Source: a virus
Direction: 5' to 3' (one strand)
Virus record (IMG/VR): IMGVR_UViG_3300025684_000010
Length of the DNA: 64,000 nt
Made by a program: the position numbers and the translations under genes. Every line of letters begins with the position of its first letter. The first letter of the stretch is position 1. Below are positions 1 to 11,312 of the stretch, piece after piece. The notes below the pieces were generated by a model. The model worked only from the letters and a program-made list of their open reading frames with translations, ran no database searches and had not been told where the DNA came from.

Positions 1-1074
1 AGATGTTGGTACAGGTACGTTTTGAGCGATATGATTCATTTTCTTCAAACCATGTAATAACTCAAAGTTCTCAGGAAAGCCCATCATATGTAAAGCTTCT
101 CGAATTGTTAATGACCTTTCTTCAGTAGGATGCATTGTATCAACCATGTTACGACCAATTACTGCATTCATATATTCGCCAAAGACATGTACTGAACCAT
201 CCCATACACCTTTACCATCAGCAAACTTCATAATGGCATGATCTGAGTATTTGGCGCCTTTTTCGTTTCCTGTTCTGTGGAACCATTCGTTGGCTTCTTT
301 CATCCAACCTTTCTTACAAACATAATTCAGAGTTGTCTTAACGTCCTCTTCAACCATAAGCTCTCGAACATCACGATTTGTTTTTGTCTTAATGAAATTG
401 TAATATGGTTCGTCAGGTACATGCTTATTAATAATCAAATCTTGATGTAATGCGTCAACAGGAATCTCTTGTAAGTATTCAGCAAAGTTCTTTCTTGGTT
501 TATTATACCAATTCATTACAGGAGCAGAGTCAGACTTCCAGCCGATCGCAAAGGTCCTGTCGCGTCCTTGAGGAACTCCGTGGAATCTCGTCGATGTTTT
601 ATATAGGGACAAAGAATAACCCCTCTCAGCGCAAATTTCGTACAGTCTATTTGCTACAGGACGACCTTTATTTGTAAACAATGCAGGAGCATTCTCAACA
701 ATCACTACCTTTGCACCAAGTCTATCAATACCATCTTGAAAGACCATATACATAAATTCGTTCTTAGCACAACCTGCGCCTTTACTCTCTGTAGTTGTTC
801 CTGTATTTAATTGAGATAGAGCAGCACATGGTGGAGTACCAGAGACCACATCAACTTGCGTTAGTCCACTGTTTTCTACTTCATCAAGTTTAATATAAGG
901 AATATCGCGTCCCATTGTATTTTGTTGGTAGTTTACGTAATGACTATCGTTATCCTCAAACCCACCATAAGAGTAGATTGCTGTAGGTGGTTTACCAAAC
1001 GCTCTTTCTGCGCCTAGCATTTGTCCACCGATAAGCGGAATGAGTGGTGCCCATGTTATTTCTTTTTTGTTCAT
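1..1074 (-). CDS. C5-cytosine DNA methyltransferase-like protein (3' end runs off the window; not in the ORF track)
   Basis: Manual translation from ATG at 1074 (MNKKEITWAPLIPLIGGQM...). Motif IV GTPPC, motif VI IVENAP, motif VIII GVPQGRDRTF, motif IX LTIREALHMMGFP, motif X-like IAQNVP. ATGA overlap with the upstream gene. Confidence 0.85.
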   Translation of the reverse strand, partial: MNKKEITWAPLIPLIGGQMLGAERAFGKPPTAIYSYGGFEDNDSHYVNYQQNTMGRDIPYIKLDEVENSGLTQVDVVSGTPPCAALSQLNTGTTTESKGAGCAKNEFMYMVFQDGIDRLGAKVVIVENAPALFTNKGRPVANRLYEICAERGYSLSLYKTSTRFHGVPQGRDRTFAIGWKSDSAPVMNWYNKPRKNFAEYLQEIPVDALHQDLIINKHVPDEPYYNFIKTKTNRDVRELMVEEDVKTTLNYVCKKGWMKEANEWFHRTGNEKGAKYSDHAIMKFADGKGVWDGSVHVFGEYMNAVIGRNMVDTMHPTEERSLTIREALHMMGFPENFELLHGLKKMNHIAQNVPVPTS

Positions 1075-2312
1075 CCGAAAAAATCCTCAAGTGTTGCAGC
1101 TACTTTCTTATCAAATTGCGTTACATCTGGTGCAACATAATCATTATCAATCGCTGTCATAATTTTATTGTTTAAGAATGTACCATCGTAGTATTCAGGT
1201 TTACATATAAGTTTACGTAATCCTGTAATTACCGATTCATACTCCTGTTCATTATTTAATAACCTATTCATCCTTTCTTTAAATTCAGCAGGAGTTTTCG
1301 GTCTTAAAAAATCTGGTATTGGCAAATGCCCCTGTTCATCATAAGATGGATGCAAGAACGGTATCACACCAGCATGTACCATTTCAATATACTTTGAAGT
1401 TACCCAACCTTTTGCGATTGGAATAATAAAAGTAAATTTAACATTATTCATTTTAGCCATTACATCATCAAGATGAATAGATCCTTTGAACCTTGCGTCT
1501 GTTTCGGTATTAGGATGTTCCCATTTACCATAGATCTCAACATCATCATGTTCATCTAATACCCAATCCTTTAATAAATTGTATCTTGAAGGTTTAGCTT
1601 CGTTTAAGATAACCATAAAAGGAACGTTACGATTTAAGTTGAACTGTTCAGTATGTTGATAGTTAATACAGAAACAAGTTTCCATTCCTGCATATGTTGA
1701 AGGCATTGATCTGTCGTAACGATCTTGTTCTTCGTAAGATTTAATACTACTTACTTTATATTCATAATCGTATTGACCTAAAGATATATTTGGTAAATTG
1801 AATATGTCTCTTGATTGATTCATAACATACCGAGGATCGTTTACAATTTCAACATAATCAGGATTCTCTTCGTTAATCCAAATCGCAATTGGTGATGTAT
1901 AATTCTTTGTCATATCAATCACAGAAGCTTTAAGTGTACGATCTTTAACTTGTTCAATTTTGCCTGGGATCGTAACTGTACCAACTTGACCAACCATTAA
2001 AACAGTATAGTCTAATTTCATTGACCTACTCTTAAAGTAATCAATCACGTGATTAAAGAATCTATCTTCATCGTTGTTTTTAATACCTTTCCAAATATCA
2101 ATTACATTATCAAAGGGAAACAACTCCAATGATTCAGACTCATTTAGAGTACTGAAATCAGATCGTCCGATAATGTAAAATGTTTTGTCTGGGTTATTAT
2201 TTGCGAGTGCAATAAGTACTGTAGACGGCTCGTTGTCTCCACCAATAGGAGAGAAGCGATTCCGCTTAAACTTGACCGATTTACCGATCTTTCCAAATCC
2301 AATGTTTTTCAT
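1071..2312 (-). CDS. GT-B fold DNA glycosyltransferase, T4 beta-glucosyltransferase-like
   Basis: C-terminal half (VEIYGKW...FKGSIHLDDVMAKMNN..FTFII...VTSKYIEM..AGVIPFLHPSYD) follows the pattern of the T4 BGT C-terminal domain; lies near a gp42 homolog. Confidence 0.55.
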   Translation of the reverse strand: MKNIGFGKIGKSVKFKRNRFSPIGGDNEPSTVLIALANNNPDKTFYIIGRSDFSTLNESESLELFPFDNVIDIWKGIKNNDEDRFFNHVIDYFKSRSMKLDYTVLMVGQVGTVTIPGKIEQVKDRTLKASVIDMTKNYTSPIAIWINEENPDYVEIVNDPRYVMNQSRDIFNLPNISLGQYDYEYKVSSIKSYEEQDRYDRSMPSTYAGMETCFCINYQHTEQFNLNRNVPFMVILNEAKPSRYNLLKDWVLDEHDDVEIYGKWEHPNTETDARFKGSIHLDDVMAKMNNVKFTFIIPIAKGWVTSKYIEMVHAGVIPFLHPSYDEQGHLPIPDFLRPKTPAEFKERMNRLLNNEQEYESVITGLRKLICKPEYYDGTFLNNKIMTAIDNDYVAPDVTQFDKKVAATLEDFFG

Positions 2313-2339: not shown

Positions 2340-2774
2340 TTATTTATCCGAATTGACCACACGTTGTCTGAGCTCTGACGAACTGAAAGAATGCCTTCTG
2401 CGATTATAATGAACAGGACATAAACCTTTTCCAGTATGCTCAACATCTTTGTATTCTTCACCAACAATTCTAATATCAGGATTGATAGTCAAAATCATAT
2501 CAACCAATTCTTGTTCAGTTGAGAAAGGTATTACCTCGTCTACATATTTACAAGAAGATAACTGTATGTATCTTTCAAATGGAGTCTGAACTGGTTTGTT
2601 CTTTGCATTAGGACGATCCACGGTTGGGTCAATCAATAATCCAACAATTAAATAATCGCACAACGTCTTTGCTTCTTGTAGCATTACAATATGACCTGCA
2701 TGAAACAGATCAAACGTTGAACATGTAAATCCGACCTTACAATCTGCCGGTAATTTTTTCCTATCTAGAAACAT
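2340..2774 (-). CDS. Cytidylyltransferase, TagD/glycerol-3-phosphate cytidylyltransferase-like
   Basis: TFDLFHAGH (HxGH), CDYLIVGL, CKYVDEVIP and the C-terminal SSSELR signature. Confidence 0.85.
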   Translation of the reverse strand: MFLDRKKLPADCKVGFTCSTFDLFHAGHIVMLQEAKTLCDYLIVGLLIDPTVDRPNAKNKPVQTPFERYIQLSSCKYVDEVIPFSTEQELVDMILTINPDIRIVGEEYKDVEHTGKGLCPVHYNRRRHSFSSSELRQRVVNSDK

Positions 2775-3681
2775 TTTCTTCCCTCAAAATTTCTTTAACT
2801 CGTTTAGCATACACCGTATAGAGTGGTGTTTTATCAGTTGGTAGATAATGTATATATGCAGGGAAGGTTTTAAAATTTAACACTGCGTCGAGTTTTAGAA
2901 CCGTAGTCCAAATACGTACGTCACTACCAAACCTGCTTACCTCAAATCCATTCTCTGATAACCATTTATAATAAATTGCATATATGTTTTGTTCTATACA
3001 CCAAAACTTTCCACCCATAGATCGGTTATTACCTGGAGTTCCATACTTTGGTATAACAGAACCACCATAACCTTTTTTGTTTTTATACTTGTGTACACCT
3101 TCCATAATAAGAACATACATATCTTTACAAGCTGCTCTTTTAAAGAACTCAAGATAATGATCGTTTCTTGTATGTACAACCTGACCAGAATTCATACTAA
3201 AATAAGGTTTGGTTCTCATTGTAGTAATATCAACCTTATCTTTATAAATTGGATCAAGTACTGCTTCTACAAACTTACCCATAACACCTAATGCAGATTC
3301 GTTATAGAATACATAAGGTTCAAAGAAATAGTGGTCAACAGGCTTGAGTAATAACGTATCGTCATCAATCATCATTGCTCTGTTGATGTTTAATATTTCA
3401 TGTGCATAAGGAAAGACCAACCATTTGATTGCCACTCCATATACATCAAGTATTCGTAACAACCACTCTTCATCAAAGAAATGCTTTACTTTATCAATCA
3501 CATCAGTTACATAGTGAATTGTTATCTTATCTGATATACTTTCTACGTTATAGGTAGTATGCCGATCATCTAAGATAACATGCAAATTCATATATGTATC
3601 TTCGTCGTATACATTATACATCTCAAGAAGGTTTTCAATCCTTGAGATTTTATTGCTTACTATGAATATATCATTCTGCAT
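2761..3681 (-). CDS. GT-A fold (GT8-like) nucleotide-diphospho-sugar transferase
   Basis: MMIDDDTLL DxD motif, FSMNSGQVV, IEQ and IHY motifs. Start moved to MQNDIF (3681). Confidence 0.6.
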   Translation of the reverse strand: MQNDIFIVSNKISRIENLLEMYNVYDEDTYMNLHVILDDRHTTYNVESISDKITIHYVTDVIDKVKHFFDEEWLLRILDVYGVAIKWLVFPYAHEILNINRAMMIDDDTLLLKPVDHYFFEPYVFYNESALGVMGKFVEAVLDPIYKDKVDITTMRTKPYFSMNSGQVVHTRNDHYLEFFKRAACKDMYVLIMEGVHKYKNKKGYGGSVIPKYGTPGNNRSMGGKFWCIEQNIYAIYYKWLSENGFEVSRFGSDVRIWTTVLKLDAVLNFKTFPAYIHYLPTDKTPLYTVYAKRVKEILREENVSR

Positions 3682-4717
3682 AGTCGATAATATCCAATAG
3701 ATCGTTAACACACTGAATGATAAAGTCTTTATCTGGGTGGTACTTGTATACTCGAATCACTTCGGCAGCTGTTAGCGTTAACAACTCATACTTATCTATC
3801 CAATGATTATATGCCAACATTGTATTAATCACAAGATCTTGAGTATGACTATCATAACGATTGATTATTAAACTTGCGATAAACTTTGCTATGTCAAGTT
3901 CACGACAACCAAATACATTAGGAATAGGATCAATTAAGTACATTGTGTCACTGTCATTAAACAGCATGTTCTTAATACCAAAATCTCCATGACAATAACC
4001 ATACTCTAATTCAATAGAAGATAGTCTTTCAACAACATCATTAAAAGGTTCAAGGTTAGCATTAGTACAGTGATTTACGATTCTTGCTATATAATCATCA
4101 AAGGTTAGAAACTTTGTTTCGATTGGCATATTACCAAAAGCATCAAGAGCTTCTTGAATTAACGCCAATGCTTTATAAGGACTGTCTTCGAAGAAATTAG
4201 GATCGTTTTCAATATAATCCATTGTAATCGTATCACCAACCACTCGATGAATCTCAGGTGTACATACTGCCCAACCGGTTTTCTCATACCAAAGTGCGGC
4301 TTCATGAGCATTCTTTGCTGTCTTGTGAACAAACTTACCGTCGGTGTAAATGTCAGAGCCTGATAGGCCACCTTCCAATTCACGAATATCAGCCTCTACA
4401 AAATCTTCAGGTGTAATACCTTTGTCGTCAATGTAATATGCTGCGAGTGGTTTATTAAAACTGAGTGCATGGTACTTTACGTTATTCTTTTGTAACCACG
4501 ATTCAATTTGAGGTCCATACTTATCTGCAGCTTCTTCTCTACTCCTACAAGAAATAGATCCACGAGCTGTATATATGTCGATAGTCCAACCTTGATTATA
4601 TAGTTCATTACACTTTTCAATTAGAGCAACGTTGGGTTTTGCGTTATCCCAATCTCTATTTGATGTAAATGCTAGAGTGTCATCAAAGTCAAGGACTATT
4701 CTTTTATGTGACGACAT
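3671..4717 (-). CDS. Fusion of a HAD phosphatase (capsule-biosynthesis type) and an APH/choline-kinase-like phosphotransferase
   Basis: N-terminal LDFDDTL, YTARG, YIDDK; C-terminal HGDFGIKN, LIDP and DIAKF. Confidence 0.8.
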   Translation of the reverse strand: MSSHKRIVLDFDDTLAFTSNRDWDNAKPNVALIEKCNELYNQGWTIDIYTARGSISCRSREEAADKYGPQIESWLQKNNVKYHALSFNKPLAAYYIDDKGITPEDFVEADIRELEGGLSGSDIYTDGKFVHKTAKNAHEAALWYEKTGWAVCTPEIHRVVGDTITMDYIENDPNFFEDSPYKALALIQEALDAFGNMPIETKFLTFDDYIARIVNHCTNANLEPFNDVVERLSSIELEYGYCHGDFGIKNMLFNDSDTMYLIDPIPNVFGCRELDIAKFIASLIINRYDSHTQDLVINTMLAYNHWIDKYELLTLTAAEVIRVYKYHPDKDFIIQCVNDLLDIIDYAE

Positions 4718-4983: not shown

Positions 4984-5436
4984 TTATTTAGCCAATCTGA
5001 AATCTGTTTCAAATTTACATCCTGACTCAATAAAGAGTTGTTTTGACTTATCATACGATTCTATCCATCTTTGAGGAACATCTTCTGCAGCCATTACAAT
5101 TCTATTTATGCCAACTTGGATAATTCCTTTTGCACATTCATTACAGACAGGTAAACCCCACACGTATATTGTTGTATCTTTTAACGATACTCCATGAAAG
5201 GAGGCATTGAAGATTGCATTCATTTCAGCATGCACAACGAGTTCGTATTTCAGTTCTCTATTGTTATACTTATCTGCTGAATCATCAATACCTTTAGGAA
5301 AGCCATTATAACCAGTTGCTAGGATACGTTTATCTTTTACAATAACCGCTCCTATTTGTTTACTTGGATCTTTTGACCAACTTGAAACTTCTCGGGCAAC
5401 TCGTATAAATCTTTGATCCCATTTATTTTCCTGCAT
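4984..5436 (-). CDS. cd: dCMP deaminase
   Basis: SKDPSKQIGAVIV, GYNGFPKG, HAEMNA and PVCNECAK zinc motifs. Confidence 0.92.
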   Translation of the reverse strand: MQENKWDQRFIRVAREVSSWSKDPSKQIGAVIVKDKRILATGYNGFPKGIDDSADKYNNRELKYELVVHAEMNAIFNASFHGVSLKDTTIYVWGLPVCNECAKGIIQVGINRIVMAAEDVPQRWIESYDKSKQLFIESGCKFETDFRLAK

Positions 5437-6091
5437 TAATTAACGCCTCAATAAATTCAAAATGTCTTTCATATACATGAAGATTAGTTGCAGTCCAAAT
5501 CAAGTCACCGACCTCAACTTCGAGATCATAAGCAAGTTGACCTTGAACAAACTTTGCCCAAGCAACATCATTGTTATAACCAAAGACAGCATCGTTAGAT
5601 CTCATTACATAATGGGATATAAGTTTACCATCTCGAATCATAAACGTATTCGCAAATGTACACATAAAGTCAGACATACCATCACGGTTGAAATCAAGAT
5701 GCATACTTGGACGATTATAGATCATTGCAGCTCTACGGCTGTTTGGATTAGCTTTCAACTCTCGAAGTACATGTTTATATTGATTACCATTCTCTTCAGA
5801 GTAAATACACCAACCATAATTAGAATTGATCTTACCTTCGTTAGAAGATATATCTTTCCAAATCTGTGGTGTCTCTCCAGGAATATCATCAACATATAGT
5901 GATTCAGACATATACCACTCAAGTTCACGCTCGATGTACTTATATGCTGGTGTTCTAATCAACCAATTTTCATCAGCAACAAATGATTCACCAAGAACTT
6001 CAATAGTCTTAGCGCCTGACTTGTCAATGACATAATCTTCTGCAAGATACTTGTCAATTAGGTCTGCTCGGATATCATTTGTTGTTTTCAT
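5423..6091 (-). CDS. 42: dCMP hydroxymethylase (T4 gp42 homolog)
   Basis: Close match to T4 gp42 as I recall it: DKSGAKTIEVLGESFVADE, RELEWY, DIPGETPQIW, INSNYGW, DGMSDFMCT, RSNDAVFGYNND (Asp at the cytosine-specificity position), LHVYERHF. Confidence 0.9.
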   Translation of the reverse strand: MKTTNDIRADLIDKYLAEDYVIDKSGAKTIEVLGESFVADENWLIRTPAYKYIERELEWYMSESLYVDDIPGETPQIWKDISSNEGKINSNYGWCIYSEENGNQYKHVLRELKANPNSRRAAMIYNRPSMHLDFNRDGMSDFMCTFANTFMIRDGKLISHYVMRSNDAVFGYNNDVAWAKFVQGQLAYDLEVEVGDLIWTATNLHVYERHFEFIEALINAGK

Positions 6092-6345
6092 TAGATGGAT
6101 TCCATTAACGCTTCAATATCAGATACTTCTGCAATTAGATCAGAAACATTTTGATTATGGAAAGCTCTTGCGGTTTTCCTTAGGATTGATTTTGGGATCT
6201 GAACTTCATCAGCCAAAGCATTGATTGCTTCTTTCTGAAAATCACGTTCTGATTCCATTCGAGTAAACGAATTACTCATTTCTTCCATACAACCACGGAT
6301 TCGTTTTTTGTCTGCGTCACTTGACGGTATCATTATATTGCTCAT
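6091..6345 (-). CDS. Small helical dsDNA-binding protein (T4 DsbA/GapR-like)
   Basis: Size and pattern (EAINALADEVQIPKSILRKTARAFHNQN) resemble the DsbA family. Confidence 0.45.
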   Translation of the reverse strand: MSNIMIPSSDADKKRIRGCMEEMSNSFTRMESERDFQKEAINALADEVQIPKSILRKTARAFHNQNVSDLIAEVSDIEALMESI

Positions 6346-6689
6346 TATTTAGTACTCCTGTTAAATACATCTTTAGTTGAATCCTGACCTTTAATACCTT
6401 GACGACAGTAAGAGACAAAGAAACTTGAATAGTTAATTAAATCTTTTGCTGAATCTTCAAGGGACTCAAAGTTAGGATCGTAATCATCTGACTGCATTGC
6501 TTCCATTACTGATTTCATACGTAGCATTTTTGCATGCATAATATCATGAATGGTTGTAATTCCGTTAGGATAGTAGTCAGCTTGTTGAACAGTCGAGTTT
6601 GGATTTTGATAATCTCTCGACTTTTTCAATTGAAGGTCAACACACTCTTGTAGTACATCGACCGAAACTGGGTTGGTTGGTTTTGTCAT
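6345..6689 (-). CDS. Nucleotide-modification-associated domain 1 (Nmad1/DUF1599-like) protein
   Basis: LQLKKSRDY...KMLRM...FESLEDSAKDLINYSSF pattern of this all-alpha family; adjacent to gp42. Confidence 0.6.
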   Translation of the reverse strand: MTKPTNPVSVDVLQECVDLQLKKSRDYQNPNSTVQQADYYPNGITTIHDIMHAKMLRMKSVMEAMQSDDYDPNFESLEDSAKDLINYSSFFVSYCRQGIKGQDSTKDVFNRSTK

Positions 6690-7778: not shown

Positions 7779-8192
7779 TTACTCTCCTTTAAGTTTTGGT
7801 AGGATACCATGATTGCCTTCATGAGATGGAGCCGTCCATCCTTCAGGTTTCATCAAGTCAGGTAATCCTAGTGGGTTTGGCCGTCCTTCCTTTACTCCAG
7901 GTTCTTTGGCCATGTTTGCTTCGAGAACTGCGTCCCAAGCTTTATAAGGATCGACTCCGAAGGCATCAAGAGTACCGATTGCCACTACACAAAGGTCAAC
8001 TAAACCATCAACGATTTCTTCGGAGTCGATATCTTTTTGAGCTGTTCTTGTTTCTTCGAGTTCTTCTTGTAGGAAGTTAACTCTAAATTCCAAAAACGCT
8101 TTCAACTTTTCCACATCTGCGTTTGCTACCCAGTTGTGTGTTTTATATTTTGATTGCATATCAACAATATCTTTTACCCAATCCTTACTCAT
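7779..8192 (-). CDS. MazG-like/all-alpha NTP pyrophosphohydrolase (candidate dCTPase/dUTPase)
   Basis: FLQEELEE...EIVDGLVDL acidic motifs, VLEANMAK, DLMKPEGW. Confidence 0.75.
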   Translation of the reverse strand: MSKDWVKDIVDMQSKYKTHNWVANADVEKLKAFLEFRVNFLQEELEETRTAQKDIDSEEIVDGLVDLCVVAIGTLDAFGVDPYKAWDAVLEANMAKEPGVKEGRPNPLGLPDLMKPEGWTAPSHEGNHGILPKLKGE

Positions 8193-8753: not shown

Positions 8754-11312
8754 TTAACTAAAAAAGTCATCGAGAGTATTAACCTTCTCCGCTGACCATC
8801 CAACCGCATCAAGGATTGACTGTATGGGACTCAAGAATACTTTGTCAAACTGAAGTTCAGTATCAACGTAATCGTGTAGTCCAAGTTGTTTTGGCAATAA
8901 GCCAGGAACCGATATTGCGTTCTCACGAATAGGATTAGGTACCTTTAAATATAATAACTTGACTTTGTCTCCACCTTGGATAGTTTCAAACTTCTTGTCA
9001 AGTCCTTTCTCTTTAAGGAAGTGGTTATACATTAAGGATCCACGAACATGCATTGGAGTACCTTTTCTGTATATAGATCCTTTGTCTTGGTACTTCTTAA
9101 GTTCATTAACACCCGAGGTCTTTGCGATGGCCATAGGATCTAATGTACGAAACAGTTCTTTGAAATCTTTAATGAAACCTTGAGTTGTTTCTTCATCAGT
9201 ATTCATAATGATCTCAAAACATTGCTTGAGTTTATCACGACAGATCTCAGGAGTCGAAGATCTTACTGATTCTAATCCTGTTACCGATACCTTAGGAGTA
9301 TCGTAGTGAACGCCTTCTGAGTTCAATGTATTTAGAATATATCGTTTCTTAGCAACAAAGATTGCTCGGTTAGTAATCTTTTCACGTTTCATTACCATTG
9401 CGTTACGATATGTACCTAGATCAGCAGCAAGCTTTTCATAACCATCTTCGATGACTTGTTCAATTTTAGTTGAACAGATTCTATCAAGGAACTCTTCACC
9501 TTTATCTTTATCAATATCAGTCGTACCAAACACTTCTTTAATCAGAGGACCGAAGTCAACATAGATAGAGTCGGTATCAATATAGATGATATAGTCATGG
9601 TCAGTTGTACCTAGAGTTCTATTTAAATAATCATTAACCGACTTTTCAGCATAACGAATACCTAACTGACCGCTTGTTGTAATTGCCTCGGCCATTTCAT
9701 TAATATAGTATAAGAAATATTTGTTAGCAGTAGCACCATACAAACTGTTCATGGCAATCTTAATTGACATTTGTGAATTGTGTAATTGATTGATCTCACG
9801 CTTTAGGCGTTTGAGTTCTCTTGGATCTGTCTCAACCTCAAACTGTTGTTCAGCAAGGATCATCTGCTTTTTGATAACAGAACGGTTATTATAGTATTCA
9901 TCAATAATTTCAGGAATGATTCCTTGCTTCTTATTTGAAAAACAAACACCGTTAGCAGCCACTGATACATTAGGACGATCATTCTTATATTCACGATTCA
10001 GTACCATGTCTTGAGTCACGTATTCACGATCATTGGGCATATAGGTTTCTGGTGACATGTTATATTGTAACATTAAGTGAGGGTATAGAGAGTTAAGGTC
10101 AAAAGATACAACCCAAGGATGCATTCCAACTTTAGGATCTTTAACATAACCACCAACAAGATCACCAGCAACCATTCCTGGTCCACCTTTAAGTGGAGGA
10201 ACAATTTTATCTTTCATTAGTTTACGATATATGGTTGATTCCCATATACCAACTGTACCAAACGCATCACCGTAGTTAACACCACCGTCATATGCAACTG
10301 TCATAACCAACGCAAGCAATCCTGTCTCTTCTTCGAGACGAGCAATCAGTTGAGTATCTTTTAAATTATAGTCAAGATACAATTGAGGATTCTCTTCCCA
10401 TAATCCAGTTAACGAACCATATTCAGAGTAATCAATTTTCTTTTCACCAAGGACAGCGTAAGCAATATGATCTAACTTATACGATTCTTGAGGACCGTAC
10501 TTATAACCAAACTTTTTAAAGCAATCCATATAATCGAGAACAACAACACCCATAATACGATATGTTGATGCAACCTTACCAAAGATCTCTCGAGAGGTTT
10601 GTTTTAATGATTTGTGTGGAGATAAACGCTTTGTGGTTTCTTCTCCAAGTAACGCGGTGATACGAGTTACGATGTATTGAATATCAAAGTATTCAACGTT
10701 CCAACCAGTTACAACATCAGGATAATCAGTTGTCCATAGTTTCATAAAGTATTGAAGTAAAGCACGTTCACCATCAATACCATCAAACAATACGAACTCA
10801 ATCTTATCTTGAGGAATATCAGTAACAGTTTTAGTCTTGTCATAATCTTTGCGACCAAGTACATAATATACATCATCTCGAGAACTATGATAAGCAATAG
10901 ACGTAATCGGTTTATCGGCAGTGTCCATATTTGGATAACCATCACTGATGTCAACCTCAATATCAAACGATACGATATTGACCTGGCTTACGTCATATGT
11001 AATCTTACCAGGATACTCTTCTTGAATAAACTGAGTTACATAATTTGTTGAACCAAACGTCTTCATACCGTGAACACCTTTGTATTCTTCGATGAAGTTC
11101 TTTGCTTCTCGCATATCACCAAACTTGTGTGGAGATACAGGTAAGTTACCTTCTAACGAATGGAAACCTTCTGCACCAGACTTTGGAGTATGAATGTATA
11201 GAGTAGGCTGAAATGGAACGCGGTACGAGAAACGTTTACCATTTTCGTAACCTCGATGTAAAATATTGTTTCCGTATCTTTCAACGGATGTATAGAATTT
11301 AGTCAATGCCAT
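8754..11312 (-). CDS. 43: Family B DNA polymerase (gp43)
   Basis: Exo I FDIE, GWNVEYFD, SFDLNSLYP, KIAMNSLYG, YIDTDSIY; C-terminal PIP-like TLDDFF. Confidence 0.97.
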   Translation of the reverse strand: MALTKFYTSVERYGNNILHRGYENGKRFSYRVPFQPTLYIHTPKSGAEGFHSLEGNLPVSPHKFGDMREAKNFIEEYKGVHGMKTFGSTNYVTQFIQEEYPGKITYDVSQVNIVSFDIEVDISDGYPNMDTADKPITSIAYHSSRDDVYYVLGRKDYDKTKTVTDIPQDKIEFVLFDGIDGERALLQYFMKLWTTDYPDVVTGWNVEYFDIQYIVTRITALLGEETTKRLSPHKSLKQTSREIFGKVASTYRIMGVVVLDYMDCFKKFGYKYGPQESYKLDHIAYAVLGEKKIDYSEYGSLTGLWEENPQLYLDYNLKDTQLIARLEEETGLLALVMTVAYDGGVNYGDAFGTVGIWESTIYRKLMKDKIVPPLKGGPGMVAGDLVGGYVKDPKVGMHPWVVSFDLNSLYPHLMLQYNMSPETYMPNDREYVTQDMVLNREYKNDRPNVSVAANGVCFSNKKQGIIPEIIDEYYNNRSVIKKQMILAEQQFEVETDPRELKRLKREINQLHNSQMSIKIAMNSLYGATANKYFLYYINEMAEAITTSGQLGIRYAEKSVNDYLNRTLGTTDHDYIIYIDTDSIYVDFGPLIKEVFGTTDIDKDKGEEFLDRICSTKIEQVIEDGYEKLAADLGTYRNAMVMKREKITNRAIFVAKKRYILNTLNSEGVHYDTPKVSVTGLESVRSSTPEICRDKLKQCFEIIMNTDEETTQGFIKDFKELFRTLDPMAIAKTSGVNELKKYQDKGSIYRKGTPMHVRGSLMYNHFLKEKGLDKKFETIQGGDKVKLLYLKVPNPIRENAISVPGLLPKQLGLHDYVDTELQFDKVFLSPIQSILDAVGWSAEKVNTLDDFFS

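Follow-up and report, generated by a model that had tools for sequence, protein, structure and literature searches.

Why should a phage whose cytosines are supplied with a filled C5 position before replication also carry an enzyme of the cytosine C5-methyltransferase (C5-MTase) fold, when C5-methyltransferases need that position free? This paradox is raised by a 64,000-nucleotide stretch of DNA (hereafter the window) from IMG/VR record IMGVR_UViG_3300025684_000010, which opens within such a gene (MT) and whose MT family travels with the machinery that makes 5-hydroxymethylcytosine (hmC) ahead of replication. The source is an uncultured marine T4-like phage, with a gp43-type polymerase, gp46/47, a gp55-type sigma factor, topoisomerase II, a gp45-type clamp and a clamp loader. 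We found that MT has a constant place in a gene module for pre-replicative hmC synthesis. The answer that we favour, held tentatively and at somewhat less than an even chance, is that MT is a fork-tethered post-replicative C5 transferase, which modifies cytosines that escaped hmC and binds S-adenosylmethionine (SAM) in an unconventional way.

The gene and its motifs lie at the start of the window as follows.
1..1074, minus strand: MT, C5-MTase-fold gene (PF00145), residues 1-358 of 408, with the 3' end past the window start.
1024..1044, minus strand: variant motif I, LIPLIGG (register from the 3g7u alignment and DSSP secondary structure).
946..972, minus strand: motif II region SYGGFEDND, with Ser35 at the canonical ribose-binding Glu site (alignment).
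826..834, minus strand: motif IV PPC with catalytic Cys83, followed by Ala in place of the canonical Gln (translation, family alignment).
685..696, minus strand: motif VI ENAP (translation, family alignment).
556..573, minus strand: motif VIII PQGRDR (translation, family alignment).
73..108, minus strand: motif IX TIREALHMMGFP (translation, alignment).
7..27, minus strand: variant motif X AQNVPVP, with canonical GN changed to QN (translation, alignment).

The missing 3' end was recovered from a 99% identical IMG/VR sister contig, G001 (L002:1501-2727), from which the full protein of 408 residues was read. The PF00145 profile matched the MT open reading frame (ORF) at E 3.5e-24 and 86.3 bits (cut-off 22), which places it in the superfamily, and TIGR00675 (NCBIfam dcm) scored 66.1 bits, under its cut-off of 100.65. 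No phage sequence matched the region in a megablast search. We built an AlphaFold2 (AF2) model with 47 relatives (pLDDT, the predicted local confidence, 93.5), and Foldseek found M.HaeIII and M.HhaI as its best matches, at E about 1e-14 and a TM score of about 0.66 on the target, together with DNMT1-type enzymes and CmoX. The earlier note had described the catalytic motifs PPC, ENA and PQxRxR as intact and motif I as LIPLIGG rather than FxGxGG. Translation at these positions bore out both observations and showed motif IX to be intact as well, and the covalent-catalysis set is complete: the Cys of PPC, the Glu of ENAP and Arg-x-Arg.

The same note had called the SAM motif degenerate, and here the family tells otherwise. 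A search of the full library returned 284 clusters (50% identity) at E < 1e-30, and conservation was counted over 136 full-length representatives that are 32-64% identical to MT. Motif I followed the pattern [IVQ]-P-L-[IV]-G-G, with P in 123/136, L in 131/136 and GG in 131-132/136, so that P-L-[IV]-G-G is near-invariant across the homologues. As a fixed family hallmark, motif I has not decayed, and the changes reach beyond it into motifs II, IV, V and X. The catalytic Cys of PPC was present in all 136 representatives, as were R171 and R173; E-N-A-P was found in 133-136 and H-G-x-P-Q-x-R-x-R in 130-136 of them, and Q-N-V-P of motif X in 131-134, with Gln351 in 99%. A degenerate DNA pattern for motif VIII further picked out more than 100 IMG/VR loci, in which every true member had PL[IV]GG; the lone canonical FAGGGG enzyme among these loci scored far lower than the true members. 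Ten further hits fell in bacterial or archaeal genome bins, always in phage context, with a clamp gene, phrog_1574 or a gp42 homologue adjacent. Within the C5-methyltransferase superfamily, the MT family forms a large branch that is carried essentially by viruses.

Is the surrounding pathway really one for hmC, as the earlier note had supposed? The genes upstream of MT run on the same strand throughout and mostly overlap. Those that bear on the question are listed below.
1071..2312, minus strand: GT-B glycosyltransferase (GT), 413 residues, ending in TLEDFFG (AF2 and Foldseek).
2340..2774, minus strand: cytidylyl/adenylyl-transferase-like protein, for sugar or alcohol phosphate activation (PF01467, E 2.8e-15; TIGR02199 and TIGR01518 below cut-off).
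2761..3711, minus strand: 316-residue protein within the module, with no family match in profile searches.
3671..4717, minus strand: HAD phosphatase fused to a kinase-like domain (weak matches: phrog_1238, TIGR01689, CotS-like C-terminus).
4984..5436, minus strand: dCMP deaminase (PF00383, E 5e-22).
5423..6091, minus strand: gp42-type dCMP hydroxymethylase (PDB 1b49, E 7e-71; Asp/Asp/Asp signature).
6345..6689, minus strand: MazG-like NTP pyrophosphatase, a candidate dCTPase (phrog_18404; recurs beside gp42-type genes).
7779..8192, minus strand: second MazG-like NTP pyrophosphatase (phrog_671, E 5e-21).
8754..11312, minus strand: T4-type DNA polymerase, ending in TLDDFFS (phrog_262, E 5e-291).

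The thymidylate synthase (TS) homologue at 5423-6091 (minus strand) is of the true gp42 type by both its 1b49 match and its signature, with Asp at the positions of ThyA L143, D169 and N177 and the motifs MSDFMCT and MRSNDAVFGYNND. Under published rules for TS homologues, such Asp residues denote a dCMP substrate and a hydroxymethyl product, as opposed to the 5-hydroxy-dCMP synthase type (PMC13326640), so that this enzyme should make hydroxymethyl-dCMP and not the hydroxy product. The GT model (AF2, pLDDT 88.7) had T4 beta-glucosyltransferase (BGT; 1nzd, 1qkj, 1c3j) as its top Foldseek match. With a gp42-type hydroxymethylase and a BGT-like GT model in the same gene run, the premise of an hmC pathway is sound. 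The GT stop codon overlaps the MT start (ATGA), and on this arrangement MT is predicted to be translationally coupled to the BGT-like GT.

Within the same gene run, the HAD/kinase-like fusion, the 316-residue protein and the nucleotidyltransferase, which is TagD/HldE-like, form a putative donor-activation cassette (2340-4717, minus strand). This cassette is replaced in relatives: Pseudoalteromonas phage vB_Psh_XG4 (XG4) has unknown proteins of 559 and 368 residues, and at locus L272 its place is taken by an epimerase/dehydratase, an NTP transferase and a pair of small SAM methyltransferases. The donor placed on hmC probably differs among the phages. A small protein like T4 DsbA, a late-transcription regulator, lies between the MazG-like and hydroxymethylase genes (6091-6345, minus strand; phrog_639, weak match to Pfam Phage_DsbA).

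The deaminase offers one way out of the paradox, in which C5 would be free after all. A stretch of 14 nucleotides (5423-5436) is shared by the hydroxymethylase and deaminase genes, and a deaminase homologue occurs in the MT locus of 26/72 MT clusters. The two enzymes could channel hydroxymethyl-dCMP to hydroxymethyl-dUMP, hydroxymethyluracil (hmU) would replace T and be glycosylated, and MT would methylate ordinary C. The published preference of some TS-linked phage deaminases for 5-substituted dC nucleotides (bioRxiv 10.1101/2024.12.05.627091) speaks for this route, and on that ground the phage enzyme may be other than a plain dCMP deaminase. In the same study, however, just 7/90 such deaminases gave hydroxymethyldeoxyuridine, all seven with synthases of the 5-methyl-dCMP type (bioRxiv 10.1101/2024.12.05.627091). 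Several complete MT genomes also carry a canonical ThyA, and hence would make dTMP. Moreover, BGT-like enzymes are known for hmC. We therefore regard replacement of T by hmU as very improbable.

How strictly does MT keep the company of hmC synthesis? In a PF00303 search of 33 MT-family records, the TS family was present in 26, including 6/6 of the records that are at least 90% complete. When phages XG4 and S-TIM54 were added, all 8 of the 8 complete or near-complete MT genomes had a dCMP-specific TS homologue. The divergent TS copy usually lies 1-6 kb from MT and always has the dCMP-hydroxymethylase signature; some MT genomes have a separate canonical ThyA besides the gp42-type copy. Within the MT loci themselves, many of which are short, a gp42-type gene was seen in 36/72 family clusters. 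XG4 is the nearest cultured carrier, with an MT homologue about 50% identical, and its gene order is gp42 homologue, HAD, 559-residue protein, GT homologue (44% identity), 368-residue protein and MT homologue. In the unrelated S-TIM5 cyanophage lineage, the MT homologue lies 2 kb from a "ThyA" with Asp at N177. Conversely, the MT-less T4-like phages Cr30, phiM19, Ochrobactrum phage OC and ACG-2014f, which share phrog_1574-clamp synteny with the MT phages, have only a canonical ThyA or none, and no gp42-type gene. Homologues unlinked to gp42, which the earlier note had named as evidence against its proposal, are not what we found: the two genes are co-distributed across the family. Since two cultured carriers exist (XG4 and a member of the S-TIM5 group), the question posed by this pairing is testable.

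This distribution bears directly on the plainest reading of the fold, that MT is a standard orphan methylase against restriction, sequence-specific and SAM-dependent, which lies in the replication/modification region by chance and is functionally unconnected with hmC. Phages often carry orphan C5-MTases, PF00145 was matched above its cut-off, and the modelled fold is that of M.HaeIII and M.HhaI. Nevertheless, the co-distribution with gp42 holds across subclades that are 30-35% identical and extends to the unrelated S-TIM5, with none in the MT-less relatives; the cofactor-motif changes are fixed, the score falls below the TIGR00675 cut-off, and MT has a polymerase-type tail (see below). We consider an ordinary orphan methylase improbable.

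One well-supported clade appears in a different setting. P0151, P0177, P0191 and P0207, 57-59% identical to each other (L269:138-2855), have long, charged, low-complexity extensions with a CXXC finger (Pfam) and, by eye, C2H2-like Cys/His patterns. Their contigs are mRNA-like and close to the ORF in length, with an AT-rich end that resembles a 3' untranslated region, and they look like transcripts of eukaryotic plankton with a captured phage-type enzyme. Among long family members no extra domain was found besides one CXXC finger, and an Atlas search returned nothing. No gp42 pathway is expected in this clade, which suggests that family members can act on ordinary cytosine DNA.

In order to see what the conserved changes mean for the cofactor, we mapped the MT pocket with hidden Markov model (HMM) alignments to ZMET2, M.HaeIII, M.HhaI, 3g7u and a canonical phage C5-MTase, combined with the secondary structure of the model (DSSP); the HMM alignments to solved enzymes mostly omit the first 40-60 residues of MT. 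The cofactor contacts described for CmoX and M.HhaI are the motif I Phe, the motif II Glu and Phe, the motif III Asp and Asn304, the position of which determines the group that is transferred in the C5-MTase fold (PMC12783734). In MT, Ile12 takes the place of the canonical motif I Phe and Leu14 that of the first Gly. Where beta-2 ends, Ser35 (Ser/Thr in 125/136) replaces the motif II Glu and aligns with the Glu of the canonical phage enzyme; in the 3g7u alignment the Glu falls at Tyr34/Ser35. The aromatic residue after beta-2 is retained as Tyr36 (aromatic in 117/136), Phe39, Asn42 and Asp43 of the motif II region are also conserved in the family, and the Asp of motif III mostly persists, as Asp64 in MT (D/N/E in 115/136). 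The Gln of PCQ is Ala84, with A/S/G in the family, the position of M.HhaI Leu100 is Trp/Phe107 throughout, and canonical G-N-A-V-P aligns to A-Q-N-V-P of motif X (Ala-Gln351, then Asn352). Judged from these alignments, the pocket retains part of its adenine side, and the transferred-group side has been rebuilt and then frozen by selection. The aromatic residue at 36 and the D/N/E at 64 argue for a ligand that still bears adenosine.

A rebuilt transferred-group side invites the possibility that something other than methyl transfer takes place. Q82A/N304A are the substitutions that enlarge the M.HhaI pocket for bulkier groups, and throughout the family the positions that face the transferred group are altered (Leu for Gly, Ala/Ser/Gly for Gln, Gln for Asn). 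The substrate of MT might be hmC in DNA, whether bare, glycosylated or otherwise activated: the Cys would add to C6, the 5-CH2-O would leave, and a nucleophile would be coupled or the group exchanged, to give a hypermodified cytosine. Where gp42-type genes and candidate dCTPases accompany MT so strictly, no free C5 would be expected, and the coupling of MT to an hmC-type GT fits such a role. Liutkeviciute et al. (2009, 2011) reportedly saw that C5-MTases given no SAM can take the hydroxymethyl group off hmC in vitro, or exchange it. On the other side, we know of no natural precedent, the adenine-contact positions are largely retained, and no nucleophile-supplying gene is conserved beside MT, where the neighbours vary except for the gp42 type, the deaminase and replication genes; the CXXC/C2H2 clade presumably lacks a gp42 pathway altogether. 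We find action on hmC unlikely, although it is the foremost rival to the reading that we favour.

Alternatively, MT could be a DNA-level cytosine hydroxymethylase that uses a donor other than SAM, such as methylene-tetrahydrofolate or formaldehyde, to convert residual C to hmC, which the GT would then cap. C5-MTases add formaldehyde to C in vitro. Such an enzyme would account for MT travelling only with hmC modules, and it draws on the same evidence as the modification of escaped cytosines, together with the remodelled pocket, including the family-wide Trp/Phe at M.HhaI Leu100. Folate binding would be purely conjectural, however, and the adenine-type contacts that MT keeps speak for an adenosyl cofactor; we give this scheme little credence. 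In a wider form, in which the MT family works by the covalent C5-MTase mechanism without methyl transfer, whether by coupling or exchange at hmC or by non-SAM hydroxymethylation, and is clamp-tethered at the fork, the idea is possible and we hold it as rather doubtful. If MT does act on hmC or with another donor, a familiar fold would prove to support a natural DNA-modifying chemistry not seen before, directly useful for the labelling and sequencing of hmC.

Where would MT meet its DNA? The polymerase ends in TLDDFFS, the GT in TLEDFFG and MT in NLDEFFA, so that MT closes with a polymerase-type peptide of the pattern [TN]L[DE][DE]FF[SGA]. An ending of this type was found in no other window ORF of at least 60 residues. 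A strict tail pattern is present in 19 of the 136 representatives, and inspection by eye adds many others whose last residues are simply a hydrophobic pair such as -LF. In T4 and RB69 the C-terminus of the polymerase is a clamp-binding peptide, and T4 AGT binds gp45; to our knowledge, the T4 glucosyltransferases do not bear the polymerase's own C-terminal peptide. The shared tail is probably a sliding-clamp tether for DNA-modifying enzymes.

A complex prediction for the clamp and MT residues 356-408 scored 0.58, where the best of three controls reached 0.01; the runs agreed in at least 50% of contacts, the partner's pLDDT was at least 43, and the prediction weakly supports the contact. The mark used for such predictions was reached by 58/80 solved complexes and 2/110 mismatched pairs; at scores of 0.60 or below, it was reached by just 7/80 solved complexes and by both mismatches. 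A similar complex, that of the RB69 clamp and a polymerase peptide, has been solved, so that the pass may reflect memorisation by the predictor. The polymerase-type tail argues for action on fresh phage DNA and against host DNA, which the earlier note had offered as one target; MT shares this tail with the phage polymerase and appears coupled to a BGT-like GT, and we disfavour the host alternative. The other two proposals of that note, partial substitution by hmC and a fold repurposed to act on hmC, both stay candidates.

Taken together, these observations are best accommodated by the fork-tethered transferase proposed at the outset. The module runs in the order MazG-like NTPases, gp42 type, dCMP deaminase, sugar activation, BGT-like GT and MT. 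By its tail, MT could ride the gp45-type sliding clamp over freshly replicated phage DNA and put a one-carbon group on C5 of cytosines not replaced by hmC, most simply a methyl from unconventionally held SAM. As an outcome, no plain cytosine would be left for host restriction enzymes or for C-specific nucleases of the phage. We prefer this reading since adenine contacts are partly kept, the residues that activate an unsubstituted C5 are complete, and the CXXC/C2H2 clade points to ordinary cytosine as a substrate. If it is correct, phages with hmC possess a post-replicative safety mechanism, comparable in a prokaryotic setting to the guidance of DNMT1 by PCNA.

Several points weigh against this proposal. 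Since the phage encodes a gp42-type enzyme as well as two MazG-like candidate dCTPases, its hmC substitution may be complete, as in T4, in which case no free C5 would be left, and T4 itself does without such an enzyme. The co-distribution with gp42 in part represents a gene block inherited among related phages. Finally, family-wide replacements in the SAM pocket, at the Phe and first Gly of motif I, the Glu of motif II and the Asn of motif X, together with the TIGR00675 score below cut-off, leave SAM use putative.

Do known systems offer a closer answer? Literature searches found no paper on the MT family or on the pairing of a TS-type hydroxymethylase with a C5-MTase. MT shares with M.HhaI, M.HaeIII and Dcm (PF00145) the fold, Pro-Cys, the ENx Glu, QxRxR and motif IX, whereas it differs in the [IV]PL[IV]GG of motif I, Ser/Thr for Glu, PC[ASG] and QN; a restriction enzyme never adjoins MT here, which sits instead in hmC modules. 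The T4 hmC pathway, which comprises gp42, gp56 and the alpha- and beta-glucosyltransferases, resembles the MT module in its gp42 orthologue, MazG-type NTPases and BGT-like GT-B enzyme, and in the polymerase-type tail, found here on the modifying enzymes, but T4 has no enzyme of the C5-MTase fold.

The nearest published systems are the TET-coupled C5-MTases and CmoX. The former, phage enzymes that make 5-methylcytosine for a neighbouring TET/5mYOX protein (Burke et al. 2021, PMC8256090), likewise reside in cytosine hypermodification clusters with glycosyltransferases; in the MT phage, by contrast, hmC is supplied pre-replicatively by the gp42-type enzyme. Tet_JBP (PF12851) was found in 0/33 carrier records, in a search that detected no positive control. 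CmoX (PDB 8yf3) is a DNA cytosine C5-carboxymethyltransferase of marine phages, in which Phe25, Glu47, Phe48 and Asp69 hold the adenosine and which is defined by SPPC, Arg350 and a neighbouring CmoA (PMC12783734). Like MT, to which it came up as a relative by sequence as well as by fold, it has the C5-MTase fold, an altered residue after the catalytic Cys and an altered motif X residue, changes that in CmoX go with a non-methyl transferred group. MT, however, has [VT]PPC instead of SPPC and Gln351 instead of Arg at the HhaI Asn304 position, and CmoA (TIGR00740) was found in 0/13 carrier records, in a search that detected control genomes. On these three grounds we rejected MT as a CmoX-like enzyme using carboxy-SAM (Cx-SAM).

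Some minor observations on the loci of the family remain. A search for related loci with family member P0164 gave no match. Just past the window start, phrog_1574 (289 residues, weak GT-A-like matches; L003:16039-16908) adjoins the clamp gene. It lies beside the clamp in many relatives and also in the cultured alphaproteobacterial T4-like phages Cr30, phiM19 and OC, which have neither MT nor gp42; its adjacency in these MT-less phages points to synteny, not function, and we dismissed it as an MT-specific partner. An apparent fusion of GT and MT in L267 was discarded as an artefact of a masked stretch. In the record of L141, a gp42-type gene (G012:C1:24563-25270) has four in-frame TGA codons and could belong to a recoded phage, in which TGA encodes an amino acid, or be a broken gene. 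A tandem pair of MT-like genes (L168:1693-4127) was seen on an IMG/VR contig of 143 kb.

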